A DNA stretch of 64,000 nt from Ostreococcus lucimarinus (lineage: Eukaryota). The DNA lies in NCBI GenBank assembly GCA_000092065.1, contig CP000594.1; one strand, written 5' to 3'. Of this stretch, positions 17,144 to 53,454 are shown piece by piece. How positions within the stretch are numbered: position 1 is the stretch's first letter; every line of letters begins with the position of its first letter. The notes beneath the pieces are model-generated. The model did no database searches, was not told the DNA's origin, and worked only from the letters and a program-made list of their open reading frames with translations. The position numbers were made by a program, and so were the translations under genes.

Positions 17144-17230
17144 ACCAGAGACGCGGCGACGGCCATCGGACGCCACGTCGCGCCGCGACGCGCGCGCGCG
17201 ACGGCGCGCGCGTCCGAGATCGCGCGCGCG

Positions 17231-19003: not shown

Positions 19004-19183
19004 CGAATAGCGAATAGCGAATAGCGAATAGCGAATAGCGAGTAGTCAACATTTGTGATTCAATAGTCGCAGTCACACGTCGACGCGAGTCGCGAGTCGC
19101 GAGTCGCGAGTACTGTAGCGAAAAGCGAGTAGTCATCTCATCATTCGTGATTCAATAGTCGCGGTCACACGTCGACGCGATCG
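18989..19183. repeat. Composite minisatellite: (GAATAGC)6-7, then a 50-bp unit, (GAGTCGC)4, and a second 50-bp unit
   Basis: Read directly. cgaatagc repeats run 18989-19035. The direct repeats gcgagtagtca..gtgattcaatagtcgc[a/g]gtcacacgtcgacgcga occur at 19038..19088 and 19125..19180. gagtcgc x4 lies at 19087-19114. Confidence 0.85.
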
Positions 19184-19645
19184 TCGCGTGGATGCGCGCG
19201 CGCGCGGACGCGAGCGACGCGAGCGACGCCGCGCGCGACCGCGACCGCGACCGCGCGAGCGCGGCGACGCGGGACGCGGAGATCGACGGGTTTCGACTCA
19301 TTCGCGCCCTCGCGTCGAATTCAACGCTCTCGACCTCGCGCGCGTCGGTCCTCGCGTCGCTCGCGGCCGCGTTCGGCGTGTCCGCGGTCGGCGCGGCGAC
19401 GGTCGTCGCGCGCGCGCGGTCGAGGACGAAGGCGGAGCGGGACCTGCCGCGAGGAACGCACTGGAGGGCGGCGGCGCACGCGGCGCGAGCGCTGGCGGCG
19501 GCGACGAGCGGAACGGCGGCGGCGTGCCTGGGAGCGTACGGCGCGTGTCACGCGCTCGGCGTGCGAAACGTTGAAGATTTGAGAAGAACTCTGCGACGAG
19601 GGACGACGAACGCGCTGGAGGCGGCGCCGGGGGAGTTTGGGAAGG

Positions 19646-20344: not shown

Positions 20345-20433
20345 TGTTTGTTGTATTCAATGTATGTACAAGTATCAATTGATTCTAAATCGTTCCGTCG
20401 GCTATAATTCGTTCTAAAAAAAGACGCGCATCG

Positions 20434-22843
20434 TCAAGCGCCCGACGATCGTCGCGATCGACCCCAGGTATTTTGCGTTCCTTGCGTTGAAGTGTTTTGC
20501 GTCCCGCGCGTGCCGCGTCGAGATGGAGCGATTATTTCATCCACATCGTCGCCGCTATCATCACCCGCCGCGGCTCGACCGCGCGTCGCCTTTGCTCGTC
20601 CCGTCGGCGGTTTCGCCGCCGGCTTGGTCTTCTTCGTCGCCGGCTTGGTCGCCGCGGCGCGCTTTCGACCTCGCGCAGGCGGTGATGCGTCAATGACTTC
20701 GTCGTCATCCGATGCCTCGATGACCTCGTCGTCGACGATAAAAGAATCGTCCGAATCGCTCGGCGCGTCGTCTCGCACGACTGGCTTCTTTGCGGCGTTT
20801 CGTTTGACGCGCGTCGAAGCGATGGCCGCCGCGCGAGAAGGTCGCGTCGACTTTTCCACTGGTGCGCTCAAAGGAATGACGTCAGCGTCAGAATCTTCGA
20901 TTTCGTCGTCAGAATCATCGTCCACGCGCGGAGGCTCGGGCGTCGGCGGTTTGGCTGACGCGCGACGCTGCGTCCGTTGCTTCTTTTGCGTCGCCGGTTG
21001 CGTCGGCGCGGCGTCTTCCACCGTCGCCGTGGGTGCGGCGTCATCATTTTCCACCGCTACCGTGCTCACTCGCGCGCGCTTTTTGGACGTCTTTGGTGGC
21101 GGCGGCGCCGTGTTTTCATCCATGACTGGTTTATGCTTGCTAGGTTTGTTTAACTGCACCTTCACGGCTTCGTAAATCTTCGAAGTCAATCGATCGACGT
21201 CGTCGGTGTTTTCTTGATCATCCGCATTCACCGATGTTTGCACCGCCTTTAAGCGCGTTTGACAAAGCTTGGAAATCGCCGCCTTTTCGTCGCGATTGAC
21301 GAAATCGTCGAGCGCGGCGGAGAGATCGTTAGGTGTGAGAAGTTGTAAACCGTCGCTCGTCGACAAGTGTTCGCGCACGAGTCGATCGATTCGTCGTTGA
21401 TTCTCGAGCATGCCATCGGCGAGGGCGTCTTCCTCCTCCAACGCCGCCGCCTCCTCATCGATCATGTCTTCATCCACGTCCACGCCATCGCGACGTTGCT
21501 TCTTTTGAGATTTATGAAAGAGCAAAACATCGTGCGGATTCGCCACCTTGCCGACAAACTTTTGACCGAAGCGCTGCGGATTGATGGTGCTAAAGCCGCC
21601 CGAGTAATCCACGCGCAGACGAATCAAAGGCAAATTCAAGCGGTCGAGCATGTCGACATCGTCTCTCCCATTTTTCGCGTGTCGTTCTCTATGCTTGCGC
21701 CCCGCCCGGACTATCATGGCGTTCACGCGGTTCTCCAGATACGTCGCCACGCCTTGGGCATCCGCGCCTTCGAGCTCGGGCGTGTTCGCCAACGTCATTT
21801 GCTCAAACTCGAACGGTCGCGTCGTTCGCAAGGTGATGGGCGTCGTGCGCCAGAATGGCGCGCTATTCGGATTCTCCGGATCACTTCGCACTTCGAGCAC
21901 GCAAATCTTCTTCTCCTTCGCCTCGCCTTCAATCAAAGACGTCACCACGCTCGATCCCGGTTGCGACACGTGAAATCCCTGCGCGCTCTCGGTTGGCTCC
22001 ACTAAACACTCGTGCTCGTGCCCCCAAACGACGTAATCCAACCAACTCGGCAAGTAACGATCGGAAATCGCATTCTTCGAATGCGCGGCTCGATTTTGAT
22101 GAATCAACATCACGTTAAACCACGAACTCGACGAGCAATCCTCCGTCTCCGCCGGTCGATGCCATCGCACGCATCCCTTGACGCTAAACATTTGATGTAA
22201 ACGATTATCGCGAATGTATCCCAACCCGTACAGCGCCACCTTAGTCTGTCCTTTACGTAACAATACCGGCTTCAAGTCCACGCGACCGGCTCCCCCCCCA
22301 CCGAGCGCGTGCTTGCCGAAATAATTCACCAATCCCGCGCTCGCGAGCACGTCCATCGCGCTCAAATTCGCCTCCCCCGCGGGATCGTCGTGATTCCCGT
22401 GTATGCTAAACACCGGCAACGACACGTTACAATTCGGATCCTCATAATTCGCCATGCCTGATTTTCCCGCATCCGCGCCGTCAGTCATCGTTTCGACCTC
22501 GTCTTCGCCTCGCTTCGCGCGCACCTCGACTCGGAAAGTTTTCCTTCCCATCGCTCAAAACTTCAATCTCGATCCCTTTATTCCCTCGCGTCGCCTCCCG
22601 CAGCGCGTCCATGCACCGCACCAGCGTCTCTCGGCTCGGTTTATTCACGTCGAACACGTCTCCCGCGAGAAACACGCAATCACAGAGTTGTTTTCTCGCG
22701 TGATCGAAGATTTCTTCAAACGCTAAAAACGCGTCATCTTTTCGAATCGGATCGCGCTCGTGCGCGCCCAGGTGCGTGTCCGTGGCGATGAGCACGCGCA
22801 GCGTGTTCGCATCGGGCGGTTTCACCCCCGCGGCCGGTCGCAT
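20434..22843 (-). CDS. MRE11: Double-strand-break repair nuclease MRE11 (780 aa). Exons 22843..22525 and 22457..20434.
   Basis: Exon 1 (ORF 22481..22843) carries phosphoesterase motifs I-II (LRVLIATDTHLG, DCVFLAGDVFDVNKPS). Exon 2 (ORF 20434..22551) continues with ..[23 protein letters not shown].., GHEHEC and the rest. The two are joined by a 67-nt intron at 22458..22524 with minus-strand donor GTGCGC, branch ACTGAC and acceptor CAG. Phase is consistent, total 2343 nt. Start ATG verified at 22841-22843. Confidence 0.9.
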
Positions 22844-23608
22844 CGCTCGCGGCGACGTGTGCGGACGCGATTCGTTTCGTTTTGAATCAGCCTCGTCAGA
22901 CGGTTACCGAGGTTTCGCGCGTTTCGCGCCTTCGCGATCGAATCCACGCCGCGCGCGCGTCGCGCGCGCGATTTTCGCGCCGAGTAAAGCACACGCGAGT
23001 GAATGTTAATGTCACAACGTCACGGTACGGCGCCGAATCGCGGTCGCGAAGCCGCCGAATCGCGCGTCGCCGCGAATCGCCGTCGCGATTCGCCGCGAAT
23101 CTCGAGCTCACGCCCGCGCGCCCGCGCCCGCGCGCGGTGAATTCCCCTGCGAGTGCGCGCTCACCACCGCGGGACTCGCGAATCCGTCGCCCGCCGTCGC
23201 GCCGCTCGAGATTACATCCAAATCCGCGCGCAATCGCTCGTTCACCTCGTCGAACTGCGACCGCACCGACGCCTTCCCGTCCGCCGACGCGCGAAACGCC
23301 TCGTACGCGCGCGTCCAATCGTCCCGCGCGTCCGTCGCGCGACGCGGCGACCCGATCGGCGCGACGAGCTCCGTCGTCGCGCCGTCGTCGTCGTCGTCGG
23401 TCGATTTTCGCGCGTCGCCGCGGCACCGCGCCGGTTCGCACGACGCGCACGGATCGAACGCCACGCGCTCGCGCACCGCGGCGACGAGTCGCGTCGCGGT
23501 GAGCTCGGAGTCGCGCAGCACGCGGTGCGGCGCGGACATGGCGCGTCGCGGTGCGACGATTCGCGTCACTGCGCGACGGGGACGCGTTGCGTTCGATTCG
23601 TCGCGACC

Positions 23609-24790
23609 ATGTTCGAGTTCTTCTTTCGCGCGCCTCGCGCGAGGGGACGGCCGGGACGGCGCGCGTGGGCTTCGGCGTGGACGACGGCGATCGGCGCGTG
23701 CGCGTGCGCGCTCGCGTGGCGCGCGACGCGCGACGCGAGGGCGTTCGATGGGGCGAAACGATGGTTCGACCGGTCGAGTTTGAAGGCGTCGACGCGCGCG
23801 CGAGGCGACGAGGACGCGGAGACGGCGCTGCGAGCGGAGATGGCGCGCGTGGACGCCGTGACGAACGAATTGACGACGCCGGGCGTGGCGGAGGGCGTGC
23901 GAAGGGCGACGCGGGCGGCGACGCGGGGCGACGGGACGCGGGACGTCGGGACGGCGCGAAGGCCGAGCGAGGCGCTGGCGGAGGCGTGCGCGACGCTCGC
24001 GGCGACGTCGGCGTGCGCGCTGCTCGTGAAGACAGCGATGAATTTGATCGGACGACGAGGGTTTCTGGATCGCGAGCGGCGGGAGGGGGGGGACACGCTG
24101 GACGACGCGTCGAGGGCGGCGTTTTTGAGCGCGACGACGACGGATTTCGCGCGTCGCGGCGTGGGAGAGTTGGCGGCGATCGCGCGGGCGATCGTGGAGC
24201 GGGAGTTGCGAGAGTTTAACGATGGGAGGGAGGAGGACGAGGCGTCGGCGTCGTGGACGCGCGAGGACGCGATAGATTTCATGCGCAGGTGTCGGGAGAC
24301 GTTGAGTCGCGCGTTGTTGGTGCCGTCGGACGTGTTCAGCGATCCAAAGGCTTTGCCGTTCGAGCGTAAAAATAGACTGCACGTGAAAGCGCCGCGGTCG
24401 TTCCCGTCGTGGGAGTCCATGCTGTTGCCGCCGAAGAATCCAGATTTCGACGCCGCGCTCGGGGCGCCGTCGAGCGGCGCCGAATCGCTCGCCGAGCGCG
24501 AACGGCAGGTTTCGAATTTGAAAGACATCATGAACGAAACGCGATTGGTGATTCGATCGCCGCATTTCGTGGTGGCGCTGAACGACGCCATGCACGCGGC
24601 GTGGGCTTCGCACGCCGACGCGATGCCTCAAAAGTTTTTCGGCGCGACGCGCGCGGCGCGACTCAGCCTGGCGCGCGCGGCGCTCGTCGTCGAGGCGACG
24701 GCGGATAGAATCGCGTCCGATCCCGACGGTCTCTTGGCTTCGATTGCGAATGAATCGGGGGTTACGTACTTCGGCAACTCGATATGGTAG
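23609..24790 (+). CDS. Hypothetical protein (393 aa) with an N-terminal hydrophobic segment
   Basis: First ATG at 23609 (MFEFFFRAP..AWASAWTTAIGACACALAW). The track ORF from 23153 has no ATG upstream. Composition is better than the overlapping antisense ORFs. No domain recognised. Confidence 0.45.
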   Translation: MFEFFFRAPRARGRPGRRAWASAWTTAIGACACALAWRATRDARAFDGAKRWFDRSSLKASTRARGDEDAETALRAEMARVDAVTNELTTPGVAEGVRRATRAATRGDGTRDVGTARRPSEALAEACATLAATSACALLVKTAMNLIGRRGFLDRERREGGDTLDDASRAAFLSATTTDFARRGVGELAAIARAIVERELREFNDGREEDEASASWTREDAIDFMRRCRETLSRALLVPSDVFSDPKALPFERKNRLHVKAPRSFPSWESMLLPPKNPDFDAALGAPSSGAESLAERERQVSNLKDIMNETRLVIRSPHFVVALNDAMHAAWASHADAMPQKFFGATRAARLSLARAALVVEATADRIASDPDGLLASIANESGVTYFGNSIW

Positions 24791-28706: not shown

Positions 28707-31700
28707 TCAGAGCATTCGGCTGGCGCGCTGCGCTGCGCGCGCGCGCGCAGCGGCGCGGCGGTCCGTCGGCGCGGTTTCAGTCGACGGCTCGGTCGCCGCT
28801 CGGTTATTCCGGCGCGGCGGTTCGACGACGTCGTTCGCGCGCGCGTCGGAGTCGCTCAGTTCGAGCGACTCTTTGGACTCGTCCACGTCGCCGTGGGAGT
28901 CGGAGTCGCCACCGGCGAGCTTGGTTGTATTCGGCGCGTCTTCGCCGAAACCAAAAGAGCGCATCATAGCGCGTGATTCGCGCTTTTCGATGCGACGTTG
29001 GACTCGCCAGCGAGAGTCATCCATTTTTTCTCGCCATGTCATTCGTCGACCAGATGAAGACTCTGGATCGTGCGTAACGTCGACGTGGGCCGTCGCGTTG
29101 ATTTCTTCTTGCATCACGGCTTCGAGCTCGGCGACCTTTTCGGTAGCGCTGAGCTCGTCGCGCATCTTGGTCATTTCAAAGTAGTCGTACGTGAACGGAT
29201 CAACGCTCGTCGACGCTGCGTTCGACGTCGCGGTAATAGATGATGTCGATGGTTTTCTTGGCGGTTTCGTCGGTGACTCGAGCATGATATCGGCCGACGG
29301 CGGCGTCCACGAAACCGAATCGCGCGCCGGGAGTCGCGGCGGTCGCGGGATGTAACCTGGCGGATACAAAGGCGCCGGCTTTTCGATCGATTCTTTTTCG
29401 GTTCGCTCGCTTTGTCGCGCCAGACGTAATTGTTGCGCGATGATTTCGTTGTACTGCGCCACGCGGGCCTCGACGCTGTCACGAGCTGCTTTTTCTCCTG
29501 TGGCGGCGTAGGCGGAATCGTCGCTCGCCACAGATTTGCGCTCACCCTCGCTCGAGTGCGACGCCACTTCGAACTCATCTTCAGAGGACCCACCGATGGC
29601 GGTGTTTTTCCTGCGCCAGCGCTCGTGATCGATCGCCTTGAGCTTGCGCTCGAGCGCGAGCGCTTCAATTTCGTGATCCCGATGCGCCGATTGATCCACC
29701 ATTGACGACTTGCGTGCTTGCCATTTGTTCCGCAAACTCTCCAAATGCACGCTGAGCTGAAGATGTCTCAGCTTTAAATCGTTCGCACCGGCTTTAGATA
29801 ACTCTTCTACCAGCACTTGATCGTCAAAAGCGGCGATCAGTTTCTCAGCCATTCGCGGATGCAACGCACGCGACGCCGCGTGGGTATCCACGATCGCACG
29901 TTTCACCGCCTCGCGTCTGTACGCGTGCTCGTCTTCGATTTCTTTTCGCTCAGCTTCTATCTTAGCCGCGATGACCTCGTCTTTGACGTCTCCGCGCACA
30001 GAGCGCAAGACTGTGATACAAAAGTTCAAATTCAACGCGTAAATGAGCAACGCTGCGATGACGGAGGCTGCTTGGTGCTTCACCGTGGACATCAACGCCC
30101 CGGCGTTGTAACTCACCAAAATTGTTGTCAGCGATGCGATCTCTACCTTGCGGTGTTGATCCTTCTCGTAAATGTCCAAAATCAACACCAACGCGAGGTA
30201 GCTTTGTAAGATGCCGATGGAGATGTACGCCGCGAGAAGCGGAGTTTCAGGAAGGAGCACCGAAGCTGCGACGAGCAAGCCTTTCCGCATCATCACCACG
30301 AATTCCCAGTAATACCTTTCTTGCGTGAATCCGATGTAAAGAAAGCCGTACAGCGCTTTTGTCTTTGCCCAGCGTAATTGATTCCGATGTCGTTTCAGCG
30401 CTCCAAGGATGAAATACGGAAATCCGAAGACGAATATCGAGGCTAAAATGAAATATCCATACATCGTCATCTTGTATCGAGCGTTATCAGTGCGCACGTT
30501 GTAATCGATGAACAAAAATCGTCCGATACCCTCGACAGAGGTCGAACGAATCATCTGCATGATGTTGGTAAAGATTGGGTACCAGCACATGGCGAGCGTC
30601 ACGGCTTTAAACAACCCGTTGGTGATGTCGCCCGCTGACGGCGCGAGCACTTCGAGTTCGTCCTCGGTCCATTGCTGGACAATATATCCTTCTTTATTCA
30701 CCTTTGTGAGAAGTTGCAACTTGTACGCATCCGGTTCGGAATCATTTAAATCTGGCGCGCGTTTCATGCGATCCAACTGGAATCGCAATCCTTCGACGTC
30801 TTCGCCCTCCCTTCTCGCGTTAATGTACGCCGACTCCAACGCATGCCTCTTTTCGTACCACTCACTTCGTAGTTTGAAGAACGCCGTCAGGCGAAGGTAT
30901 AAATAAAGAGGCACACACAGCGCCGCGAAGATGCCGACCGTGCCAAAACTGTACGTCGTGTACTGAATGTGATTCCACTTTGACACGCAATCCGTCGCAA
31001 ACGCCTTGATCGACGTCGTGGACGTGAGCCTGGCGAGCGGGAACAGCACGCCGACGACGTCTGGCCACCCGAGGTTGATCGTTCCGAGCGTTGCAAGCAT
31101 GTGAAAGTGAGAGACGATGACCTTGGTGTAGACGATTTGCGCTGGTAATGCGCTCCGCGCGGCGCGACAAATCAACAACATGGAGACGATTTGGACAATC
31201 GTGAGGACGAACAAGCTCATACCGCTTAGCCATTTTGGCCAACATTTCGTGCACCGCAGCGACGTTTCAAGCGAGCGCGAGTCTTCTAGACTGGCATACT
31301 CTTTTCGCGCATCACACGTACCACACAGCGTCCCAGAGTAACCGATGTTACACAATTCGTCGCCTTCACCGACGCCGCCTTTGCAGCTGTACGGTGATCG
31401 ACACCTTAGCACGCCCAACTTTGTCTCGTCGGCGCGCCAGTTGCCTTCCGAGAGAGATAATTTTGTGATGTCTCGTGAATCGCACACCGCGCCATCGGGA
31501 CAAGATCCACACTCGTACGCGTCGTACGGCTCCAATCTGTAATAACGCGTATACGTCGTCGTTCCATTTTGCGCCGGTCCAGTGAGTGTGCACTGACACG
31601 AGGTTTTGTTCACGTTTGCGAGATGGCCCGGAAGTGTTTCCCCGCTCGAAGTCACGTGCATCTGGCGCGGTTTGCCATCTTCGCCGGTGTACGTGTTCAT

Positions 31701-34700
31701 CCGTATCGGACACGCATCGCACAGTGCTGGTCCACTACCGGTTTTGTAAAAACCCGCCGCGCACGGCACACACGCACCGTACGGCCGCAACGAAGTTATG
31801 AAGCTCGAAATCCTGGATGGGTCGACTTGAGCGTAGAGACCTGGATAACTCGATACTGAAACTGACGGAGGTTGATAACCCGATCCTGAGGCGTCTTCCG
31901 TATATCCTGGATAACACTCGCACGAACCATTGGAGGTAGACTGCGAATGTGGCTTTACTGTGCTGCACGGAAAGAGCGTGAGTCCACCGGTAACGTTGAG
32001 CTCGGCGGTGCCAAGCTTAAACATAAGACTGTACGTCGTCCCGCGCCGACCGATGACTGTCAAATCTTTGAACGTCGCGAGACCGTTCGAGACGCGTTCT
32101 GACCCTCCGATCACCGCATATGGAGCCGGCGTTACTGTTACCGTCACATTATCCACTGAGTTTGTCACGACGTTGCCCGAAATATCGTAAACGGTGATTT
32201 CAAACGTTGGAAGCGATACGTTGCTGTCATAGCTCGATGGAATGCGCTGCGTACCGAACTCAAGCCTGTACGGATCTCCGGGCTCGATGATGACTTCCAG
32301 AGCATCGCCAATGAGAACCAAGTTTTGCGTTGACGTGCACTCGTTGGCTTGACATTCAGACTGAAATTCTAGCACGTAACGCCCTGCGAGCGGGCGAATG
32401 AATTTCAGCCCCGTTGCGGTGCCGACAAATCCAGGGTCGCTTCGCACGCCGTAAAAGTCCAAACCAGTCCCCGTGGTGCCAGCGACATTCGGAGGTGAAA
32501 GTCCACCAAGCGAGCGTAAATATGCGGTCTCAGCGGCGAGCTTGTTCTCGCTCGCTTCGCTACTATCTGGCGAGCAAAAGCTCTTTGCGCGATTGCTCTC
32601 TGTGCCATCGGCGCACCACGCCGCTACACCATTGACGATGTAAAGGGCGCCCACACTCACTGATCGTGAATTGCTCGGCGAACAACCAATTGTGGCGTCC
32701 GCGCACGATACGCTTGTTTCATCGGCGATGAGCGGTGACGTCACCGTTGTGGTGGACGTCGTCACTCCTGTGGCGCTCAGTGCGTACTGTTTTAGGTTGA
32801 CGTTGACGGCTCGGCGGGCTTCGGCGGTGTCCAACGAAGAGCCCATGAGTAATCCACCGGCGTCACGTGTGACGACAAAAATGTCAGTAAGATCGACGAC
32901 GTCTGCACTTTTGTATGGACGTGTATCTGTGCACAAACCGACGGGGAATTCCACGGTGACGTCAGCGCGAGCGCAATTTGGGCAACCGCACGCGTCCAGA
33001 GATGAAATATCGCCAGCCTTGATGAGAATGTCGAACGAATATGGCGTGAGGACCACGGGTGAAGGTGTCGACACAGTTACTCGATATGTCCCAGCGACGG
33101 GATTGTAGAGCCTGATGCCAGAGATTAGTCCAACGCCCGACGAGGTGGCGTATTGGCTGATTTCGGGCGGCTGCGAAAATGGGTCTTGCGTTGTCGACGT
33201 CACGTATTTTATGCCCACGCTCACATGTCGCAAGATCCCAAAGTCAGCGCTCGTGACTTCGTTTGCACCACCATCGGTAACCGTCACCGCAAACGGGGCT
33301 AATATCAGAACTCGTGCCGCCATGAGCGTTGTCGGACGACTGTACGTGGCGTCGTTTGGAGTTGGATAGCCACGCGAGCTCGGCACATTAAGTTGACTCG
33401 CATCGCCGAGGGTGATTGCCACGGCCACGCTATCCGATATCAACCCATCGCCTGCAAATGTCAAGACATACTGACCTACTTCCAGCGCTTGCGCGGTGAT
33501 GCCAGTAAATTTAACGATGGATCGTCCCATCGGCGCTGTAACCGATTTCGTAGCGTACGCTTGCGTCGTAAACGTCCTAGTCGAGTTGAATGAGGAACGT
33601 AAAGTCGCCGTGATAACCTTTGTGAACTGGTTGCTTTCCAATAACGTCCCACCAGCATCTTGCATGTGCACAGTGAATTCATCAAATAAAATGAGAGCAC
33701 TTGATTTGTATGAAGTCACGGTTTCGATGGTTGAGACGTGCTCTAGCTTCGCCGGAACACCTTCGATGATTTTCACCGTCATATCGTACGAGCTCAAGCC
33801 AGACGTGGAAAATCGGATGACATGCGTGCCCTGTGGTGGCGAACTGAGATAGAAATTACTCAGTACCACGGTCCCTGCGACTGTCGTACTACTTGTCGTA
33901 CCGAGCAACTGCGCGGTGCTATCCACCACGGAGATGGTCAAAGTGCGATTGACGCCGTCTTCGGCGAGCAGTTTGTTGCCCGCGGCGTCCACGACGTTCA
34001 GAACGAACGGTTCCGATGCACGACCAATAAGGGTGTAAGTCGATGACTTGAGCCCCACTTGACCGACCAAGCCTTCAAAGGAGTCCGGGAAGACGACGTC
34101 GAGCGACGCGGCAGAGCCCGGCCAAACGTCGTATGACACATCCACGTCAACCAAACCGGGGGATTTAAAGGTAACGATTGCCTTTCCACCGTGAATGGTG
34201 GACTTTGGAAGTCGAAATGCGATGTCGCTGAACGTCGCTGTGCCACTACTGATGGCTTTCGTGTGCGTTTGAGGTTGTGTCGCCGCGCACGCGTTTCCAG
34301 ACAACACACACGGATTCGTCCTGGCGACGTCAAACACTGCCTCAATCGTTCCGGCACAGCTCGCGTCGCCGGTGACACAGGTAGGAGAATACGCGCTCCC
34401 GACCAAATTATCGCCGCCATCCATAACGACAATGACGATTGGGCTCAAGACCACGAGCGCCGCTGACCTATACTGCGTACAAGTACACGAGGAACCACTT
34501 CGCAGGAGCGTCGTTGTCGTCGTACACAATCCTGTCCCTGTGTCGCGATATTGCACGTAATAATCATCGCAAGGCGCTCGTATAGCGAGATGGTGTGCGC
34601 GCCCGAGAGTCACAGTGATAGACTGCGTGAGATTCGAAAACGCTGGCATCGCTGGCACGTGAAATTTCAGCGTGTGCGTACCCACCTTTGCTCGTTCAAG

Positions 34701-37700
34701 CGCCAATCCCGCGAAAGTCACCGCGTTTGTCGCGACGTCAAAACTCGGACTCAATCCAGTCGACACAGCCAGCGGATCAGGAATGACAAACGCATGTCGT
34801 GTCGCAACCGTGGCATTATACGTCAAGTAATCGCTCTTCACCCCGATAGCATCGCTTGAGACGCCGGATGTGAACTCAAGGTACGCCACGACAGGAGTGT
34901 CCCCTAAAACGTAATTGACTCCATTTGCGTGCGCGTCGTACATTTGAAAATCGAACGCATCCAGAGGGACGTAATATGCCGCCGCGTAACGTCGAAACGT
35001 CGACATATTCATCACGCCAAACTCTGGTTCGTAAGTCGTCACTGGGGAGTTCGTGAGCGCAAAGCTACTCGGTACGCCTGACGTGACGGTGATGTTGAAG
35101 TTCAAATCCACGAGCGGCGAGGTGTTCGTGGACATGACGTTTCCAGAACTATCCTTCAGCGTGTTAGTCGTCGAAGAACACGTGATTCCGTGCACACCCA
35201 GCGTGACGGAAGACAAAGTCAAACCGGTGAGTACGGCGGCCCCAGTGCTCAAAGTATTGCCCGTGAGCGTTCCTGAAATAGAAAGTGTCGAGCTGGTGCA
35301 TGCGAAGGCGCGATCAACTGTGTACGAGAGCGTTGACGCATCATAACGGTCGTTCGCGCCCAAGAAGCTTCCCCCAATATCCGCCACATAAATCGTCAAA
35401 TCGCCCAGAGGCGTCGACGATCCGGCATAACGTATGTCAGAGCCGAACTCGAGGGTATGTTTCCACTGATGACCGATGTTGCCTTCGACCAGCTGAACGA
35501 GTTGCTTTGCCGGGCGAATGTAATCCGAACCAGTCGCGTAAAAGGCGATTACGTAATACCCAGCCGGTTGGACATCGAGCGTGATACTATTCGCTGCGAA
35601 CGTCCAAGTGGCTGTTCCAGTTGAATCCGTGACGCTCGTCGTGGAAGTCGGTTCGAGCGTGAAAGAGTCGCCGTATGCCCGAACGTCAACCGAGGCACCA
35701 GACTCCGGCGGCGATGTGATCAAATTATTTCCAGCGTCGTACAATCGCACCGTGATCGCGTTTGGGATGGTCAGCGTCGTTGAAGACGTCGTCATTGAGG
35801 GCACGATATGGTTATCTATCTCCAAATATCTCGGTCGACCGACCACAGTGGTGAATGCGGATATTGCCGAACCAAAGGACGCAGAGAATAGAAATCTGTA
35901 CGTCGCGTCCGCATCGTTTACTCCCCTGGACGCCGCAGGGTAGGTTAGATTGTTTACGAATATCGTTTTACCGGGTGTTCTCGCACCGATCGGTGCAGGA
36001 TTGAGAAGCTTCAAGTCACGGAATACCGCCACGCCTCGATGCGTAGACACTGTCGTGGAGCCATTGATAATCGATCCAGAGGTTCGCGGAGCGTTTGACG
36101 CGTCCACAGATGTCACCGAGATTGAGTGCGAAACTTCGTCAAAGTTGTGCAACCTGTTGCCTGCGGCGTCTAACACGTACACGTTTACGACGCCGACGTC
36201 GGATTCCTCATTAGTGGGCACCACCAATGTGTTTGTTGAGCTCGGTATCGCGGCCAATCCTACAGGCGCTCCAGGCACGACGGTGAAATGGAACGTCGTC
36301 GCCATCGCAAGGGCAATGCAACTTGAACCAGTGCAGTCTTCACCGATGACATCGACGACATAATTACCCATCCGCAAAGGTGCGCTAAAACGTAATTGAA
36401 ACGTTGCCTTACCATCCAAAGTGGTGATGGTGGACGGCACCGTCGTCATCGTCACCCCTGGTGTATCCGTGGAGAGCGAGGTGTTTAGCGTCGCCGTGAT
36501 TTTAAATCCCCGCGTCCCGCCAACGCCAAGATCATCCGCGATGACGGTGCCTCTGTTATCCACCAAGTTCACCGTCATCGCGTCGAGCGTCATTGTCGAC
36601 GCGCCAGCATCTTTCGTTGACTCATACGCAGTGTGAGCGATGTTTTGTCGCGCGTGCGTCACGCGAAGACCATTCGGCGTTCTATGCAGCGCTAGGGCGA
36701 CGCCGGTATGATAATCCACCCCATTCATGCTAAAATCCACCGTCACCGACGTCGGTGGCGGGTCTAACAACCACGGCATTTTCACGTGGTAGTCTCCACA
36801 TCCGTTTGCGCTCGTCGAAGGACAGAGGGGACACGTGACGCGTGTCGAGTTGACGTACGCCGCGTCCAACACGCTCTGAGCGCCGAATCGACATTTGAGC
36901 ACGCCGTCGACGAATGGACCGCCATCGATAGCAATTACCGCTGGATCCCCATTCGGTACTTCTCCCGTAAATAGCACCGAAGGCACGTGTGAATTCGTTA
37001 CCGACGTCGCGACGAGATTCGGCGGGTCGTAATACATGTAATTTGCCATTCCGCCGACCCATATAGAGTTTTCAAAAAACGTCGCGAGCGCGCTGCGATC
37101 GTCCGGATAACCCTCAAAACTGATACTGACGGCCGATATGTACGTACCGGTCGCCGCGAACGCACTGTACGACGGCGCATCGCATTCGATCGTTGTCGAA
37201 TTCACCAGTTTGGCTGGCACATACACGGGCGAACCGTCGTTCAAAAATCGGCACGCCACGCGGTGCGACAGAGTGTCGTCCGGGGCCCAGGAAGAGTCGT
37301 ATGGAAACCCAACACCACGAATCGTGAGCGTTGTCCCACCCGCCTTGGGTCCTCTTGAAGGGGAAATATCATCGATTTCTGTCACGGAGAAGCTTTGGTA
37401 CGAGATTTCTGCGTCCGAAACATTGTACGTCCCTGTGAACAACGCACCCATGCTTGGGATCGTCGTCATCGCACCGATCGGTCTTGTCGACGCCGTCGAC
37501 CCTTGAACTTCCATGCACGCCGATCCGACGCAGTTGGCATCCGGGAATACTTTGACTTTTACTATGCGCGTCGGAGCATTCACGTCTGACGCGTCCTGGC
37601 TCGTGAGGACGTACAGCGTCCCTCCACTCGCACCCCCATCGCTCACTGTCTCGATGGCGAGCGCATCCCTAACTAAACTACCACTCGTTCCTAACTTGAC

Positions 37701-39071
37701 GTGTTCTATCGCCGAGCTCGTGTTGTTGAATGATTTTCTAACCCGGTATACGCACGAGATGCGACTGACGCACGTTGCGCCGCACATCGCGCCGTTGTAA
37801 GGCGCACTCGATGTCGCGACGTAAGCATAATCTCCCATCACTCCGAGCGCGGTAAACGCGGTATACCTTCCGAGATAGCTCGACGAAAGCAAAGAATGAC
37901 CTTCGCACGCCGCGTCGATGGCGGTGGCGTCTTTAAAGTACAGCTCCCCATCCGCCGCGATTACGCTCTCGCTCGAGTACGGATTCAGGCGAACAATCGC
38001 GGGATAATCTTGCGCCGAACTAGCCTTCGCGCGACCTGCGAGAAACATATCGACGCCACCACCAGTTGTGCCGACCGTGACCGCCTCGGTGAACTTACCT
38101 GCGTCTCGTCTGTTGTGGCACGCCTCGCACGCCGCGCGCAGCGTCGGCAACGATATATCCTTCGCGCTCGGCGCTGCGTCGATACCGCTCGAATACACCA
38201 GCACGCGACCAAGCGCGCTCACCGCTGTGGGTGTTACTTTTAAAATCAAATCATCGTCCGTGCCCATGGCCGCAACGTCGACGATGTATCCATCCGTGGT
38301 TTTCTCGTGACGATTTCTAATCGTCCCGCCGCCCGACGCCAAATCTGACCACACGACGTAACCGTATTCAACTGGCTGCCCCGCCCTTCGCACCCACGCG
38401 TTTGCGATGGCGTATATCACATCACTCGTCGCGCTCGCGACGACGATCGGTCCGCGCATGGCTATCGTCGACCACCCGTCGCTCGTCGCCGCGTCGCCGC
38501 GCGGATGCCCGCACGACCCCTTCCATCCGTTTGGCACAGGATCATCCACGTCGAGCACGATCGTCCCATTCGCCTGCGGCCGCGCGGGCCAACGCGTGGG
38601 TTCATTCGCGTTCCACGCCCGCGCGCTCGCATCGCCCAACCGCGCGTAATGATCCACGCACAGCGCGTCTCGCCCGCCCATCGCGACGACTTCTCGCGTC
38701 CCCGCCGCGCGCGCCGTCGCGCACGTCACCTCCCGCGGCGCCGCCCCGACCCCCGTCGCCATCACCGGCGCCATCGCCGCGTACCACGTCTCCCGCACCG
38801 TCCTTCCATCGACCTCGACGACGCGCTCGAACGTCTCCACCGCGTCTCTCGCCGCGCCGCAGTCGACGCCGTCCCGGTCCGCGCGGCAGCGACACGTCTC
38901 ATCGATCTCGCACGTCCCGTACGACCGCTGCGCCAGGCACTCGCGCGGGCAAAAGCTATACGCGTACCCTTCGCGCGCGCTCGCGCCCAGTGATCCGCAC
39001 AGCAGCGCCAGCGCGCGCGTCACCGCGCGCGTTCGTCGCGCCGCGTGTGTCGGTTGCGCGCGCGACGACAT
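28707..39071 (-). CDS. Giant (3454 aa) extracellular IPT/TIG-repeat protein with EGF-like N-terminus, multi-pass TM region and charged coiled-coil tail
   Basis: ATG verified at 39069-39071, followed by a signal peptide (ALALLCGSLGASA), then Cys-rich CPRECLAQRSYGTCEIDETCRCRADRDGVDCG. Numerous Ig-like IPT/TIG units (e.g. ISPSRGPKAGGTTLTIRGVGF, AIDGGPFVDGVLKCRFG). At least 8 hydrophobic helices follow, starting WLSGMSLFVLTIVQIVSMLLI. Final 450 aa are Lys/Glu/Arg-rich coiled coil. One uninterrupted 10.4-kb ORF. Confidence 0.8.
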   Translation of the reverse strand: MSSRAQPTHAARRTRAVTRALALLCGSLGASAREGYAYSFCPRECLAQRSYGTCEIDETCRCRADRDGVDCGAARDAVETFERVVEVDGRTVRETWYAAMAPVMATGVGAAPREVTCATARAAGTREVVAMGGRDALCVDHYARLGDASARAWNANEPTRWPARPQANGTIVLDVDDPVPNGWKGSCGHPRGDAATSDGWSTIAMRGPIVVASATSDVIYAIANAWVRRAGQPVEYGYVVWSDLASGGGTIRNRHEKTTDGYIVDVAAMGTDDDLILKVTPTAVSALGRVLVYSSGIDAAPSAKDISLPTLRAACEACHNRRDAGKFTEAVTVGTTGGGVDMFLAGRAKASSAQDYPAIVRLNPYSSESVIAADGELYFKDATAIDAACEGHSLLSSSYLGRYTAFTALGVMGDYAYVATSSAPYNGAMCGATCVSRISCVYRVRKSFNNTSSAIEHVKLGTSGSLVRDALAIETVSDGGASGGTLYVLTSQDASDVNAPTRIVKVKVFPDANCVGSACMEVQGSTASTRPIGAMTTIPSMGALFTGTYNVSDAEISYQSFSVTEIDDISPSRGPKAGGTTLTIRGVGFPYDSSWAPDDTLSHRVACRFLNDGSPVYVPAKLVNSTTIECDAPSYSAFAATGTYISAVSISFEGYPDDRSALATFFENSIWVGGMANYMYYDPPNLVATSVTNSHVPSVLFTGEVPNGDPAVIAIDGGPFVDGVLKCRFGAQSVLDAAYVNSTRVTCPLCPSTSANGCGDYHVKMPWLLDPPPTSVTVDFSMNGVDYHTGVALALHRTPNGLRVTHARQNIAHTAYESTKDAGASTMTLDAMTVNLVDNRGTVIADDLGVGGTRGFKITATLNTSLSTDTPGVTMTTVPSTITTLDGKATFQLRFSAPLRMGNYVVDVIGEDCTGSSCIALAMATTFHFTVVPGAPVGLAAIPSSTNTLVVPTNEESDVGVVNVYVLDAAGNRLHNFDEVSHSISVTSVDASNAPRTSGSIINGSTTVSTHRGVAVFRDLKLLNPAPIGARTPGKTIFVNNLTYPAASRGVNDADATYRFLFSASFGSAISAFTTVVGRPRYLEIDNHIVPSMTTSSTTLTIPNAITVRLYDAGNNLITSPPESGASVDVRAYGDSFTLEPTSTTSVTDSTGTATWTFAANSITLDVQPAGYYVIAFYATGSDYIRPAKQLVQLVEGNIGHQWKHTLEFGSDIRYAGSSTPLGDLTIYVADIGGSFLGANDRYDASTLSYTVDRAFACTSSTLSISGTLTGNTLSTGAAVLTGLTLSSVTLGVHGITCSSTTNTLKDSSGNVMSTNTSPLVDLNFNITVTSGVPSSFALTNSPVTTYEPEFGVMNMSTFRRYAAAYYVPLDAFDFQMYDAHANGVNYVLGDTPVVAYLEFTSGVSSDAIGVKSDYLTYNATVATRHAFVIPDPLAVSTGLSPSFDVATNAVTFAGLALERAKVGTHTLKFHVPAMPAFSNLTQSITVTLGRAHHLAIRAPCDDYYVQYRDTGTGLCTTTTTLLRSGSSCTCTQYRSAALVVLSPIVIVVMDGGDNLVGSAYSPTCVTGDASCAGTIEAVFDVARTNPCVLSGNACAATQPQTHTKAISSGTATFSDIAFRLPKSTIHGGKAIVTFKSPGLVDVDVSYDVWPGSAASLDVVFPDSFEGLVGQVGLKSSTYTLIGRASEPFVLNVVDAAGNKLLAEDGVNRTLTISVVDSTAQLLGTTSSTTVAGTVVLSNFYLSSPPQGTHVIRFSTSGLSSYDMTVKIIEGVPAKLEHVSTIETVTSYKSSALILFDEFTVHMQDAGGTLLESNQFTKVITATLRSSFNSTRTFTTQAYATKSVTAPMGRSIVKFTGITAQALEVGQYVLTFAGDGLISDSVAVAITLGDASQLNVPSSRGYPTPNDATYSRPTTLMAARVLILAPFAVTVTDGGANEVTSADFGILRHVSVGIKYVTSTTQDPFSQPPEISQYATSSGVGLISGIRLYNPVAGTYRVTVSTPSPVVLTPYSFDILIKAGDISSLDACGCPNCARADVTVEFPVGLCTDTRPYKSADVVDLTDIFVVTRDAGGLLMGSSLDTAEARRAVNVNLKQYALSATGVTTSTTTVTSPLIADETSVSCADATIGCSPSNSRSVSVGALYIVNGVAAWCADGTESNRAKSFCSPDSSEASENKLAAETAYLRSLGGLSPPNVAGTTGTGLDFYGVRSDPGFVGTATGLKFIRPLAGRYVLEFQSECQANECTSTQNLVLIGDALEVIIEPGDPYRLEFGTQRIPSSYDSNVSLPTFEITVYDISGNVVTNSVDNVTVTVTPAPYAVIGGSERVSNGLATFKDLTVIGRRGTTYSLMFKLGTAELNVTGGLTLFPCSTVKPHSQSTSNGSCECYPGYTEDASGSGYQPPSVSVSSYPGLYAQVDPSRISSFITSLRPYGACVPCAAGFYKTGSGPALCDACPIRMNTYTGEDGKPRQMHVTSSGETLPGHLANVNKTSCQCTLTGPAQNGTTTYTRYYRLEPYDAYECGSCPDGAVCDSRDITKLSLSEGNWRADETKLGVLRCRSPYSCKGGVGEGDELCNIGYSGTLCGTCDARKEYASLEDSRSLETSLRCTKCWPKWLSGMSLFVLTIVQIVSMLLICRAARSALPAQIVYTKVIVSHFHMLATLGTINLGWPDVVGVLFPLARLTSTTSIKAFATDCVSKWNHIQYTTYSFGTVGIFAALCVPLYLYLRLTAFFKLRSEWYEKRHALESAYINARREGEDVEGLRFQLDRMKRAPDLNDSEPDAYKLQLLTKVNKEGYIVQQWTEDELEVLAPSAGDITNGLFKAVTLAMCWYPIFTNIMQMIRSTSVEGIGRFLFIDYNVRTDNARYKMTMYGYFILASIFVFGFPYFILGALKRHRNQLRWAKTKALYGFLYIGFTQERYYWEFVVMMRKGLLVAASVLLPETPLLAAYISIGILQSYLALVLILDIYEKDQHRKVEIASLTTILVSYNAGALMSTVKHQAASVIAALLIYALNLNFCITVLRSVRGDVKDEVIAAKIEAERKEIEDEHAYRREAVKRAIVDTHAASRALHPRMAEKLIAAFDDQVLVEELSKAGANDLKLRHLQLSVHLESLRNKWQARKSSMVDQSAHRDHEIEALALERKLKAIDHERWRRKNTAIGGSSEDEFEVASHSSEGERKSVASDDSAYAATGEKAARDSVEARVAQYNEIIAQQLRLARQSERTEKESIEKPAPLYPPGYIPRPPRLPARDSVSWTPPSADIMLESPTKPPRKPSTSSITATSNAASTSVDPFTYDYFEMTKMRDELSATEKVAELEAVMQEEINATAHVDVTHDPESSSGRRMTWREKMDDSRWRVQRRIEKRESRAMMRSFGFGEDAPNTTKLAGGDSDSHGDVDESKESLELSDSDARANDVVEPPRRNNRAATEPSTETAPTDRRAAARARAAQRASRML

Positions 39072-43464: not shown

Positions 43465-46400
43465 ATGGATCTCGCGAAAACGATCCCAAAATGTCTCAAC
43501 GACGCGCAAATCTCGTTGACGACGCACAAGCGCGGCGCCAAGACGCTGTGCGCGGTGCGAAACGAAGACCCAGAGACGTTTTTACCGACGTTTTGTAACG
43601 CAATCTTGCCGGTTTTGCTCGAGTACAAGGTACGCTTGGACGCCGCGGCGACGCGCACGCGCGCGGACGATACGGTGTCGTCGTTCGTTGGATGTGGACG
43701 ATCAGAGACGGCGGGAAACGCGCGTGTGAGATGCGAATGCGATGGAACGATGACGCCGGGACGCGGCGAGCGCGCGAGACGGGACGACGACTGACCGAAC
43801 GCGGCGAACGCTCGAACGAGACGCAGCGAGACGTGTGCACCGAACGTGTCGTACGATTTATCGTCACCTTTTGCGCGTGGCGCGAGGAAGGAATGGAGGA
43901 AGACGCGGATGAGTTCAACGAGGCGTTTTTGGGATTTTTGCTCAACTTGCACGGAGCGAAGGACAAGGCGGTGCGATTCCGCGCGTGTCAAATCATCGCG
44001 GGTGTGCTGAATGGACTCGGTGCCGACGCTGAGGTGAGCGATGAGTTGTATGAACGCATGACGGACGTGATGCTGGAGCGGATTCGGGATAAGATGCCGC
44101 CGGTGCGGGCGCAGGCGGCGCGAGCGCTGAGTCGTTTGCAAGACGGAGGGGAGACGCAAGATTTCTCGCAGGATGACATCACGCAAGCGTTCGTGGAGTT
44201 GCTCGGAAGCGAAAAGAACAAAGAGGTGCGAAAGGCGATTTTGGGCTCGCTCGCGATCTCTGATTACACGATTCCGTGCGTTGTAGAACGCACGCGGGAC
44301 GTGGCGGAGGACGTTCGTCGCATCGCATTTTTGGCGCTCACGTCCAAGGTGCCCGTCGAGTCGGTGTCTATCGCGCATCGTGCCTTGGTTTTGCGTCGAG
44401 GTTTGAATGATCGCGCACCCATGGTTCGAAGCGCGAGCGTCGAGATGCTCAAGCGATGGCTCGAAGCATTCCAGGGCGACGTCGTGAAATTCCTCACCGC
44501 GCTCGACGTCGAGTCCAACGAATCCGAAGCCGAGCTCGCGCTCAAGGAACTCATCACCATCGGTCGCATCAAGCCTATGGACGTGTGCAAAGACGTCGAG
44601 CTGGTGTCGAAAGGTTTGAAACGCGACATCGACGTCGACGGTCTCATGACGCCCGAAGAAGGGTTGTACTGGCGCGTCGTTTTGCAACATTTGGCCGAAG
44701 CCTCCGCCGTCAAGGGCGCAAATTCGGCGCAGTCGGTCGGTCAAGCGCGGGAAATCGCCGTCGCCGAAGTCGGTGAGATGATCGAAGCTATGGAATCGGC
44801 GTTACCGCCGACGGCGATGGATTTGCTGAGCATCGTGAGCTCGCACGCGAAGAGCGCGGAAGGGAAATTCGCGGCGAGACAACTCCTACCTCTTCTCAAA
44901 TGCGTCGATCTGAACGACGGTGCGATTCGACGAGGCGCCATCAACTTGGTCGCTGAGCAGCTTCACGTCAAACCCGTGGTGAATTCGCACGGATCGTCGT
45001 ACGCGTGCGGGGGTGATGGCAAGTGGGAGAGCGCGCTCGTCGAAATTGCTCGTCTCGTCGCCAACGATTCCACCGAATTCGCCGGTCTCGTTTTGGACGC
45101 CGCAGATTCTCTTCAAATGTCTGGTACTGCCGAATCGCTCACGCAGGCGTTGTACATCGCGGGTTCTTTGCTCGAGCGCACGTCGAAGCGTTTACCATCC
45201 GTCGCCGCCGAAGCCGTGATGGACTCTTTGATCAAGCCCGCGGTGACGCACTCCACCACGGCGGTTCGCCGGGAATCGATGCGCGTGCTGGGTCTCTTAC
45301 TCGCTTCTCAAGGCGTCATCAACCCTGACGCGGTGGTGATTCTGCGAACGGCCTTAAGTGCCGATGCCGCGCCCGTTCGATGCATGGCGGCTCGCGCGCT
45401 CGGCGACGCAGCGCTTCTTCATGGTCCCGCGGCGCTGGACAAATATCGCGTCCTCGTCGATCCGGAGGATGAAGACGTCACTGAATCCGCATTCAACGCG
45501 AGTCTTCCTCTCGAGATTGCACTCATGAAGTGCCTCGATGAAGAAGGAAAACCATTTGTGTTCAAAGCGAACGCGTATGATTTGGAAGACGTAGATGTTG
45601 AAGACGTGGATGCCACCAAGGCCGCCGCGGCGGTGGAGGCGGAGGAAAGCGTCGGCACCGTCGCCGCGGAGTCGCTCTGCAAAATCATCCTTCGTCGCGG
45701 TGAAGGCGCGTTTGAAGCCGCTGCGGCGGTTGTCTCGCGATTGCTTGGCAGCTACTTTGCGGCGGATGCGCAGCGAAGACCGCGTCTCGCACAATGCTTG
45801 GCCGTCTTCTTCCCGGCGCTCGCAAGCGGGCCGGAGGATCGTCGACGCTTGCTCGCGGATTGCGCCCTGCCGGCTTTGCGCGCCGCGGCTAAGATCAAGG
45901 GCTTGTCGCGCGTCGCCGCCCTTCTCGTGCAACTTCTCACCGCGTCCGAAGAACCGACGGCGGGCGGCGCCGAACTCGCCCTCGCGTTGGCGAACGAATC
46001 TCTGGCGTTAAGCACGAAGCAAACGCCATCTGGCGCGCAAGCACCGCTCGCCAAGGCGTACACCAACGCCATCGCTCGCGTGTTATCTGTCGTTCCAGTG
46101 AAATCCACGCGAGACGAAGTCGACGTCGCTGAAAAGGTCGAGCTGAACGACACGTTAACCAAGGCTTGGCACGCCGCCGTGCTCGCGGCGGAGCGAACAA
46201 AGGAAAAGTCTGCGGCCAAGGATTTGGCGATGGCGGCAGAACGTCTTCGCTCGAATTGCCTTGCGACACAAAAGACGGTGGCGCCCGAAACCGAAGGTAG
46301 CGAAGGAATCGCCGTTCCAGCGGATGACGACGACTTATCGACGCAGATGAACGACGACGTTCGCGCCGCCGTGATGGAGTACGCAGAGGAGCTCGCCAAC

Positions 46401-46610
46401 GGCGCTGACGTACCGTTTTGCGGTTCTAAAGTGAAAGCCGCCAAGGTGAAAGCCGCGCCCGCGGTGCCGACGCGCGAGTCTCGTTCGCGCGCGAGCAAAA
46501 CTGCGGCGGCGGATAAGCTGAAAGACGACGACTTGAAGAAGCCGCTTCCGAAAGTCACGCCCGAACGCAAGTCTCGTTCTCGACGAGGCGCGCTGCAAGA
46601 AACAAACTGA
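43465..46610 (+). CDS. NCAPG: Condensin complex subunit 3 (CAP-G / Ycg1 / Cnd3), 982 aa. Exons 43465..43629 and 43827..46610.
   Basis: Exon 1 (MDLAKTIPKCLNDAQISLTTHKRGAKTLCAV..LLEYK) and exon 2 (RDVCTERVVRFIVTF..NAVRFRACQIIAGVLNGL..KMPPVRAQAARALSRLQD..VERTRDVAEDVRRIAF..LNDRAPMVRSA..LDVES) are collinear with CAP-G HEAT repeats. The intron 43630..43826 has donor GTACGC, branch ACTGAC at 43790 and acceptor CAG. Both junctions are phase 0. The track ORF 43429 starts with GTG. The first ATG is 43465. Confidence 0.85.
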
Positions 46611-46655
46611 CGCGAAACATCGATGTGATATTAAATAAACTCCTAACCACACTAC

Positions 46656-52033: not shown

Positions 52034-52102
52034 GCCGGGCGTCGCGACGGCGCGTGACGCGCGATGGGGACGACGCCGACGGCGGACGCGCGTCGTGTAT
52101 AA

Positions 52103-52267
52103 AAACCCGTCTCGCACTGCGCACCATACGTGATATCAACAAAACCCGTCTCGCACTGCGCACCATACGACGCGAGCAGTGATATGAAAACCCGTCTCGC
52201 ACTGCGCACCATACGACGCGCGCAGTGATATCAACAAAACCCATCTCGCACTGCGCACCATACGACG
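52103..52267. repeat. Four tandem copies of the 29-bp motif aaaacccgtctcgcactgcgcaccatacg (period 38-49 bp)
   Basis: Copies begin near 52103, 52141, 52187 and 52236. The fourth copy has a single G-to-A change. The spacers are gtgatatcaac- or acgcgagcagtgatatg-like. The array lies between the divergent AATF start (52033) and the psaD start (52390). Confidence 0.85.
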
Positions 52268-52389
52268 CTACCGCGGCGTATCTCGCGCGCCGCGCGTATC
52301 GCGAGCGATCGCGCGCGGCCGACGCGGGCGCGGCACACGCGCGCGCCCGACGCCCGCGCCCCCGAACTTCGCGGACGCGACACACGACG

Positions 52390-53454
52390 ATGTTTGCCAT
52401 CTCCAGCTCCGCGCTGACGCCGCGCGCGACGGTCGCGAACGCGACGCGCACGCGACGATCGACGACCGCGCGACGATCGACGGCGATCCGCGCCGAGGCG
52501 GAGGGCGCGAAGGCGGCGCCGGCGGCGCCGAAGGCGTGGACGGCGCCGAAGTTGAACCCGAACACGCCGTCGCCGATTTTCGGTGGTTCCACCGGCGGTC
52601 TGTTGAGAAAGGCGCAGGTGCGCGAGCGACGAGGGAGCGGCGAACGCGCGCGACGATCGAGGCGCGGGCGGGATACGCGACGAACCTAGGGGTGATGATT
52701 GGGGCGATTGGGGCGCCGGCGAACGGAGGGGGGGGGGCGAACGATGCGCGAACGATGCGTCGAGTTTCTTTGCGGCGCGGGCGCGCGGGCGATCGGGGGG
52801 GGGTCGAACGCGCGCGACGACGCGCGCGCAATCGCGCGATCGGGCGCGGTGGGATGGGAACGTTTGGCGCGAGGCGCGCGGGGGGGATTTCAAAGACGAC
52901 GACGACGCGAGACTGACGGATGCGATGATGCGTTTGACGCGTGTAGGTTGAGGAGTTCTACGTGCTGACGTGGGAAGCGAAGAAGGAAGCCATCTTCGAG
53001 ATGCCGGTGCGTGGACGAGGCGAGCGCGAAGGCGCGCGCGCGCGAAGATATCGCGCGCTTTGAAACGACGCGACGACGAAGAGGCAAAGATTGGGGATGC
53101 GCGACGCGATCGTGGACGCGAAACAGCGACTGACGTGATGAAACGTGTATTTTGCATCCGCAGACCGGTGGTGCCGCGATCATGCGCAAGGGCCCGAACC
53201 TGTTGAAGCTCGCGCGCAAGGAGCAATGCCTCGCGCTTTTGAACAACTTCCGCGCGAAGATGAAGCTCGACGGCTGCATCTACCGCGTGTTCCCGTCCGG
53301 TGAGGTGCAATACTTGCACCCGAAGGATGGTGTGTACCCGGAGAAGGTGAACAAGGGTCGCGTCGGTGCCAACCAGAACATGCGATCGATCGGCAAGAAC
53401 ACCAACCCGGCGTCGATCAAGTTCCAAGGCAAGCTCGGCCCGTTCGAAGTTTAG
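52390..53454 (+). CDS. psaD: Photosystem I reaction-centre subunit II (PsaD) precursor, 192 aa. Exons 52390..52617, 52947..53006 and 53164..53454.
   Basis: Spliced protein reads ..[18 protein letters not shown]|[20 protein letters not shown]|[96 protein letters not shown], collinear with PsaD. Intron 1 (52618..52946) has donor GTGCGC, branch ACTGAC and acceptor TAG. Intron 2 (53007..53163) has donor GTGCGT, branch ACTGAC and acceptor CAG. All junctions are phase 0. N-terminal transit peptide. Confidence 0.9.

Follow-up and report, generated by a model that had tools for sequence, protein, structure and literature searches.

Seven segments with the signature of canonical spliceosomal introns in 64,000 nucleotides of Ostreococcus lucimarinus DNA

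Here we describe seven short, probable introns and the signals they share in a stretch of Ostreococcus lucimarinus nuclear DNA 64,000 nucleotides (nt) long (contig CP000594.1), referred to below as the window. Genes in the window are tightly packed and mostly single-exon, with about 0.2 introns per gene. The seven segments lie in six genes, namely psaD, MRE11, CAP-G (condensin subunit 3), an ABCF gene, a gene with a TBCC domain, and a gene that an earlier sequence-only reading had called "FNR-like". That reading had taken frame splits in MRE11, CAP-G and psaD (two) to be short introns, and had used the motif ACTGAC to predict three more in the TBCC-domain, "FNR-like" and ABCF genes. All seven could be re-derived from the sequence, and every figure that had been given for them was reproduced, including lengths of 67-329 nt, three donor hexamers, an exact ACTGAC, and a branch A 23-39 nt before the acceptor. 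The features are as follows, with the last two entries for each intron being the distance from branch A to acceptor and the acceptor itself.

psaD coding region: 52390-53454, + strand, exons 52390-52617, 52947-53006 and 53164-53454, 192 amino acids (aa)
psaD intron 1: 52618-52946, + strand, 329 nt, donor GTGCGC, 30 nt, TAG
psaD intron 2: 53007-53163, + strand, 157 nt, donor GTGCGT, 30 nt, CAG
MRE11 intron: 22524-22458, - strand, 67 nt, phase 1, donor GTGCGC, 23 nt, CAG
CAP-G intron: 43630-43826, + strand, 197 nt, phase 0, donor GTACGC, 32 nt, CAG
"FNR-like" intron: 9980-10077, + strand, 98 nt, phase 2, donor GTGCGC, 28 nt, CAG
ABCF intron: 11108-11287, + strand, 180 nt, phase 1, donor GTGCGT, 39 nt, CAG
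TBCC-domain gene intron: 5601-5729, + strand, 129 nt, phase 0, donor GTGCGC, 24 nt, CAG

The psaD and MRE11 introns are excised from mRNA, at exactly the junctions that had been predicted. In psaD, the interval 52618-53163 runs from the first base of intron 1 through the last base of intron 2. Intron 1 carries GACTGACG at 52911-52918, with branch A at 52916 and a TAG ending at 52946, and intron 2 carries GACTGACG at 53128-53135, with branch A at 53133 and a CAG ending at 53163. Four transcript contigs of 895-974 nt from JGI, Logan and ENA samples (L009-L012) encode an unbroken 192-aa PsaD, and 52618-52946 and 53007-53163 are precisely missing from all four. Residue for residue, from end to end, the spliced protein matches XP_001421350.1 / ABO99643.1 of O. 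lucimarinus CCE9901. The ends of the psaD transcript fall at about 52339-52380 and about 53769.

In MRE11, the donor is at 22524, GACTGACG at 22486-22479, and the CAG ends at 22458. The exact sequence of the spliced 780-aa protein is found on 13 short contigs (Logan, JGI). Eight of these were compared with the window (L001-L008); they are 99.5-99.8% identical to it and colinear save for a clean 67-nt gap at 22524-22458. Since the intron shifts the frame, genomic DNA cannot give a contiguous 780-aa open reading frame (ORF), and these contigs are thus transcript assemblies. The orthologous MRE11 intron in a close sister clade (L039, L040) is also 67 nt long and has the same signals.

Other features stand next to these two genes. 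At 52095-52268, a 46-nt unit (AAAACCCGTCTCGCACTGCGCACCATACGACGCG.GCAGTGATATCAAC) is repeated in tandem in about 3-4 copies, 70-250 nt ahead of where the psaD transcripts begin, and may act as a promoter or enhancer for the highly expressed psaD. Around MRE11, single RNA-seq contigs (L001-L008) cover three to four adjacent genes on both strands over 19166-24343, which indicates that adjacent transcripts overlap in this compact genome. The stop codons of MRE11 and the convergent 232-aa gene are only about 90 nt apart.

For CAP-G, the frame split is resolved as an intron by homology to orthologues. GACTGAC lies at 43789-43795. Across the spliced junction, NAILPVLLEYK joined to RDVCTERVVRFIVTF (LLEYK/RDVCTERVVRF, with the slash at the junction), the protein aligns without gaps to MMETSP transcripts and to Bathycoccus CAP-G, and the orthologues derived from MMETSP transcripts read NAILPVLLEFKRDLCAERIVRFLVSF there. 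In sister-clade genomic contigs with 85% protein identity, the donor has the same position, GACTGACG is present and the acceptor is unchanged, while the intron body has diverged; the intron there is 217 nt long and has stops in all frames. The GenBank model XP_001421348.1 (962 aa) also splices from 43630, but to an acceptor 60 nt further downstream (43630-43886). It drops 20 residues, RDVCTERVVRFIVTFCAWRE, that Micromonas, Bathycoccus and sister clades of Ostreococcus all conserve. Because of this loss the GenBank model is probably wrong, and the signature-based model appears to agree better with the orthologues.

The "FNR-like" gene has a coding sequence at 9789-9979 plus 10078-10909, with GACTGAC at 10044-10050. 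Its spliced junction reads C VVIEN, as it does in an O. tauri protein (P0035) and an MMETSP transcript (P0037), whereas ORF read-through gives S-VVIEN instead. In a sister-clade locus (L023), GACTGAC lies 29 nt before the same CAG. The name given to the gene found no support, with no Pfam match and no significant match to PDB sequences even with a six-sequence profile. The product is conserved in Mamiellophyceae, and the first exon resembles a transit peptide. A metagenome scaffold (L017) aligns to 9872-11219 in inverted orientation and then to 9872-15964, with the arms meeting at about 9872, ahead of the "FNR-like" intron. The arm in inverted orientation runs to the edge of the examined locus, at about 11219 inside the ABCF intron, so that its true outer end lies beyond view. 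This inverted duplication is probably a palindromic assembly artefact.

The ORF of the TBCC-domain gene opens only at 5706, right after the TGA within ACTGAC, and has no ATG ahead of the conserved N-terminal region; an upstream exon is therefore needed. Exon 1 ends at 5600, with its ATG at 5463 or 5499, and GACTGAC is at 5700-5706. Contigs from a clade with 90% identity (L035, L036) conserve exon 1, the donor (GTGCGT), GACTGACG and the acceptor around an orthologous intron of 87 nt that is unalignable. The GenBank model XP_001421339.1 (532 aa) begins at an internal Met. Missing from it are exon 1 and 119 N-terminal residues, among them a region that Ostreococcus clades conserve. Here too the signature-based model appears to be the better one. 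A 645-aa TBCC-domain protein (P0044) was considered as the spliced form and rejected; it is a genomic read-through from a strain whose intron has an indel. Metagenome catalogues hold several such read-through variants of 600-645 aa with the intron translated. By exact look-up, the spliced TBCC-domain (651 aa), CAP-G (982 aa) and "FNR-like" (340 and 331 aa) proteins are absent from the protein collection.

Across the window we located all 18 ACTGAC sites and inspected their contexts. A site was taken to mark an intron where a GTRCGY donor lay upstream, a YAG followed 23-39 nt past the penultimate A of the motif, and the frame closed after removal. All three held at 7 of the 18. The seven segments start with GT and end with YAG, and their spliced translations are open and full length. 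Their GC content is 0.61-0.76. Six donors are GTGCG[CT] and the seventh, in CAP-G, is GTACGC. Each intron has exactly one ACTGAC, which is always preceded by G to give GACTGAC, and in four of the seven GACTGACG (GACTGAC plus the following G) is present. The acceptors are CAG or TAG, with their G 23-39 nt from the branch A in every case. In six introns the acceptor is the first YAG after the branch A; the exception is the TBCC-domain gene, whose intron bypasses a CAG only 5 nt past it. The branch-to-acceptor stretch is not pyrimidine-rich (pyrimidine content 0.30-0.56), and it contains no AG in four introns and one internal AG in the other three. The introns lie toward the 5' end of their genes, at relative positions of 0.02-0.19, except those of psaD at 0.40 and 0.50.

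Given these features, the seven segments are very likely canonical U2-type spliceosomal introns of the "canonical" class of Mamiellophyceae. For CAP-G, "FNR-like", ABCF and the TBCC-domain gene, the orthologues and sister-clade contigs point to excision. Several points weigh against the assignment. By itself ACTGAC is not enriched across the window, with 18 sites seen and 19.5 expected. One full match to the composite pattern, at 33470 (+), is a false positive that lies antisense within a 3454-aa ORF. Four of the seven introns rest on comparison with orthologues or sister clades, not on RNA. The role of ACTGAC as branch site is suggested by its position and by analogy. For ABCF, the spliced 742-aa protein is absent from the protein collection, unlike the 802-aa read-through form. 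A scan of JGI metagenome contigs for its 24-nt exon-exon junction returned two unrelated matches only, which are put down to chance as they have no similarity to the window.

The lack of enrichment of ACTGAC also bears on whether the shared motifs could be a chance product of GC-rich composition, found because they were searched for. GTRCGY is very common in the window (297 sites), and three of the seven introns were found through the motif search. The composite pattern, GTRCGY...ACTGAC...YAG at 23-39 nt, is a different matter. It has 8 matches, against 1.93 +/- 1.47 expected from dinucleotide-preserving shuffles, and none of 300 shuffles reached 8. Seven of the eight matches are introns, and seven of the nine GACTGAC in the window fall inside them. 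The four introns found without use of the motif all carry ACTGAC (at least four in 750 nt, P ~5e-6). The chance of finding the motif in the 17 nt of allowed positions before an acceptor is ~0.0024 per intron, or ~1e-8 for the three RNA-proven introns. Sister clades also keep the motif and its distance to the acceptor in introns that have otherwise diverged, and the published genome-wide figures agree (PMC2483917). The position-specific statistics and that survey, which is based on expressed sequence tags (ESTs), already refute chance composition, to which we give almost no credence.

Exact matches to the motif do occur outside introns, as at 33470 (+) and at 46606-46611, where ACTGAC overlaps the TGA stop codon of CAP-G. 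Another site, at 55840 (-) with a CAG at +31, was rejected, as it has no donor and is antisense to a + strand ORF. Five of the 11 non-intronic ACTGAC lie antisense within the 3454-aa ORF. This ORF, at 28707-39071 (-), is uninterrupted, has an IPT/TIG domain and a weak ephrin-receptor-like match, and sits in a region of lower GC (52-56%, vs 60-70% elsewhere).

For the ABCF gene (11056-13464, with the intron GACTGACG at 11243-11250) there is an alternative to splicing. Its 180-nt intron is in frame and has no stop codon, which means that the frame would stay open without splicing, and 11108-11287 could be coding, or an intron that is often retained and translated, with the 802-aa protein as a real product. 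This read-through protein is the only form in the collection, in NCBI, JGI and ENA sources, on 78 contigs. Transcript support for ABCF splicing was found neither in the junction scan nor among the contigs inspected for it. Short members of the ABCF, "FNR-like" and TBCC-domain clusters were inspected as transcript fragments, and none crosses a junction; one contig (L038) starts 35 nt upstream of an internal Met and does not reach the junction. Most of the 802-aa entries are, however, prokaryote-style ORF calls on genomic metagenome contigs, and these are uninformative on splicing. In sister-clade contigs (L023-L032) the orthologous segment is 179 nt long with in-frame stops, a GTACGA donor, and GACTGAC 25 nt before a CAG, and it must go to keep the frame. 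Its removal gives an in-frame 741-aa protein in which exon 1 (MGKRDETPEQRAARKAK) is conserved. In the window, the translated segment is rich in Arg and Ala, unlike its Lys- and Glu-rich flanks, and the segment has the complete GTGCGT...GACTGACG...CAG signature. We therefore consider a coding or often retained segment unlikely, and favor a spliced intron here as in the other genes. Facultative retention, which would give a second isoform, 802 aa long and with 60 extra residues inserted N-terminally, seems very unlikely.

With ABCF included, five orthologous introns were examined in sister clades (ABCF, TBCC-domain, CAP-G, MRE11 and "FNR-like"). Exon sequence, GACTGAC and acceptor are retained, with GACTGAC kept in all five at 23-37 nt from the acceptor. 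For the genes in which the clades have diverged (ABCF, TBCC-domain gene, CAP-G), neither the sequence nor the length of the intron body is the same. The sister-clade donors are GTGCGA, GTGCGC, GTGCGT and GTACGA, so donor position +6 is not always a pyrimidine. The three introns that had been predicted from the motif thus find support in orthologues or sister-clade contigs.

The same comparisons bear on whether the seven could be copies of a mobile "introner element" family like IE-C of Micromonas. In Micromonas RCC299, IE-C average 67 nt and carry GACTGACG (PMC3879977), and the MRE11 intron is likewise 67 nt long with GACTGACG. When the introns were compared all against all and with the window, however, matches between them were only low-complexity, CG-rich and of at most 19 nt. 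Since no sequence is shared beyond the signals, the introns are not introner elements. Their lengths spread over 67-329 nt, and their positions are common to sister clades, which indicates old introns rather than recent insertions. We regard an introner origin as extremely unlikely for these spliceosomal introns.

A plausible mechanism follows the order of the signals. The near-invariant donor G/GTGCGY (one GTACGC) sets the 5' end, presumably through recognition by U1 and U6. By analogy with yeast UACUAAC, GACTGAC(G) would be the branch site and would pair with the GUAGUA box of U2 small nuclear RNA (snRNA), leaving the penultimate A bulged. The acceptor is a YAG 23-39 nt downstream of this A, and the bypassed CAG at 5 nt in the TBCC-domain gene is presumably too close. 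The absence of a polypyrimidine tract suggests that the introns are recognized by their strong donor and branch site, which is also the case in other intron-poor eukaryotes. U12-type features were not seen, in that the donors are GTGCG or GTACG and not [AG]TATCCTT, and the branch motif is ACTGAC and not TCCTTAAC.

It could be argued that ACTGAC is conserved for another reason, for example because a splicing factor binds it, and that the lariat forms at one of the other adenosines present between the motif and the acceptor. The motif fits the universal CTRAY branch consensus, it lies at the canonical 23-39 nt from the acceptor, and it is the counterpart of yeast ACTAAC in a cross-species survey (PMC2483917). 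We think it very improbable that the branch point is elsewhere. As for the donor, the idea that GTGCGY is the sign of a co-evolved U1 snRNA has already been tested, with a negative outcome for Mamiellophyceae. According to a preprint, U1 snRNA candidates in five of these green algae keep the standard pairing region, so the odd C at donor +4 is not compensated in U1 (bioRxiv 10.1101/2022.06.08.495308).

The sequence-only reading had also offered the signature as a practical intron finder. Within the window it finds all seven introns with one false positive; its published sensitivity is ~87%, and it fails for the chromosome-2 class of introns. Many metagenome-derived "proteins" of the genes discussed here are ORF calls that run into introns, and prokaryote-style callers routinely do this. 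With the rule, such errors could be removed from the Ostreococcus-derived proteins of metagenome catalogues. In practice it is thus of some, if modest, use, while its value for discovery is little.

Searches for further introns in the window added none. A generic ORF-joining scan gave mostly false candidates within ORFs, and a relaxed CTRAC scan anchored on downstream ORFs recovered six of the seven known introns plus an implausible site at 42148 and nothing further, both scans being blind to introns with very short exons or non-consensus signals. An Rfam scan of the window gave no RNA family at the gathering threshold and hence no intron-hosted small nucleolar RNA or snRNA gene at that threshold. 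The ORFs at 17120-19003, 19159-19668 and 19583-20344 were considered as one split gene and rejected. They are separate genes, since the RNA contigs show colinearity in this region and a stop followed by a microsatellite closes the J-domain ORF. The interval 18973-19180 contains this microsatellite, (AGCGAAT) x 10, which begins on top of the stop codon that ends the J-domain ORF (17231-19003), and after it two copies of a ~50-nt direct repeat (TTCGTGATTCAATAGTCGC.GTCACACGTCGACGCGA), which are intergenic.

The closest known system is the set of canonical introns of the same species. Irimia and Roy (2008, PLoS Genet 4:e1000148, PMC2483917) surveyed O. lucimarinus introns that lie outside chromosome 2 and are confirmed by ESTs, and found ACTGAC in 87.2% and GACTGACG in 66.5%. 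The same survey reports a strong 5' site (4.8 bits) with the atypical consensus GTGCGTG. It also gives the general rule that intron-poor genomes have a strong branch and donor consensus, which bears out the claim that a rigid consensus is typical of an intron-poor, compact genome. All seven introns of the window fit this set in motif, donor type and intron-poor setting, and nothing substantial differs; in the window all seven introns have the exact motif, and a single donor reads GTACGC. The distance from branch A to acceptor, 23-39 nt, is a measurement of this window only. Published work thus already covers the rule on donor and branch site, in print since 2008 and cited in later work, together with how it is interpreted and the genome-wide test that had been proposed. 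The small added value of the present analysis lies in CAP-G and TBCC-domain models that appear better than those of GenBank and in the flagged in-frame ABCF intron.

Beyond this species, Verhelst et al. (2013, GBE 5:2393, PMC3879977) describe Micromonas canonical introns with AG/GTGCGT and NCTGAC, a class present in all Mamiellophyceae, and cite GACTGACG as the canonical branch motif of Ostreococcus. A distance of 43-52 bp from the predicted branch motif to the acceptor downstream is reported for Micromonas, vs 23-39 nt here. A second class of Mamiellales introns, the small introns of BOC1 or chromosome 2, occurs in the same organisms and is handled by the same spliceosome. Those introns are 40-65 bp long, AT-rich and without detectable motifs, and lie on the big outlier chromosome (PMC3491373, PMC2483917), whereas the introns described here are 67-329 nt long, 61-76% GC and have strong motifs. 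They do not belong to the BOC1 or chromosome-2 class. In its GC content (62%) and intron density the window shows the pattern of normal regions; the psaD record sits on a sequence of 708,927 bp. A more distant parallel is found in Saccharomyces and other hemiascomycetes (GTATGT...TACTAAC...YAG), which likewise have few introns and near-invariant donor and branch hexamers (Table 2, PMC2483917), as well as 5'-biased introns and an acceptor picked downstream of a strong branch site. Compared with Saccharomyces, the Ostreococcus introns have ACTGAC in place of ACTAAC, GTGCGY in place of GTATGT, and a GC-rich context.

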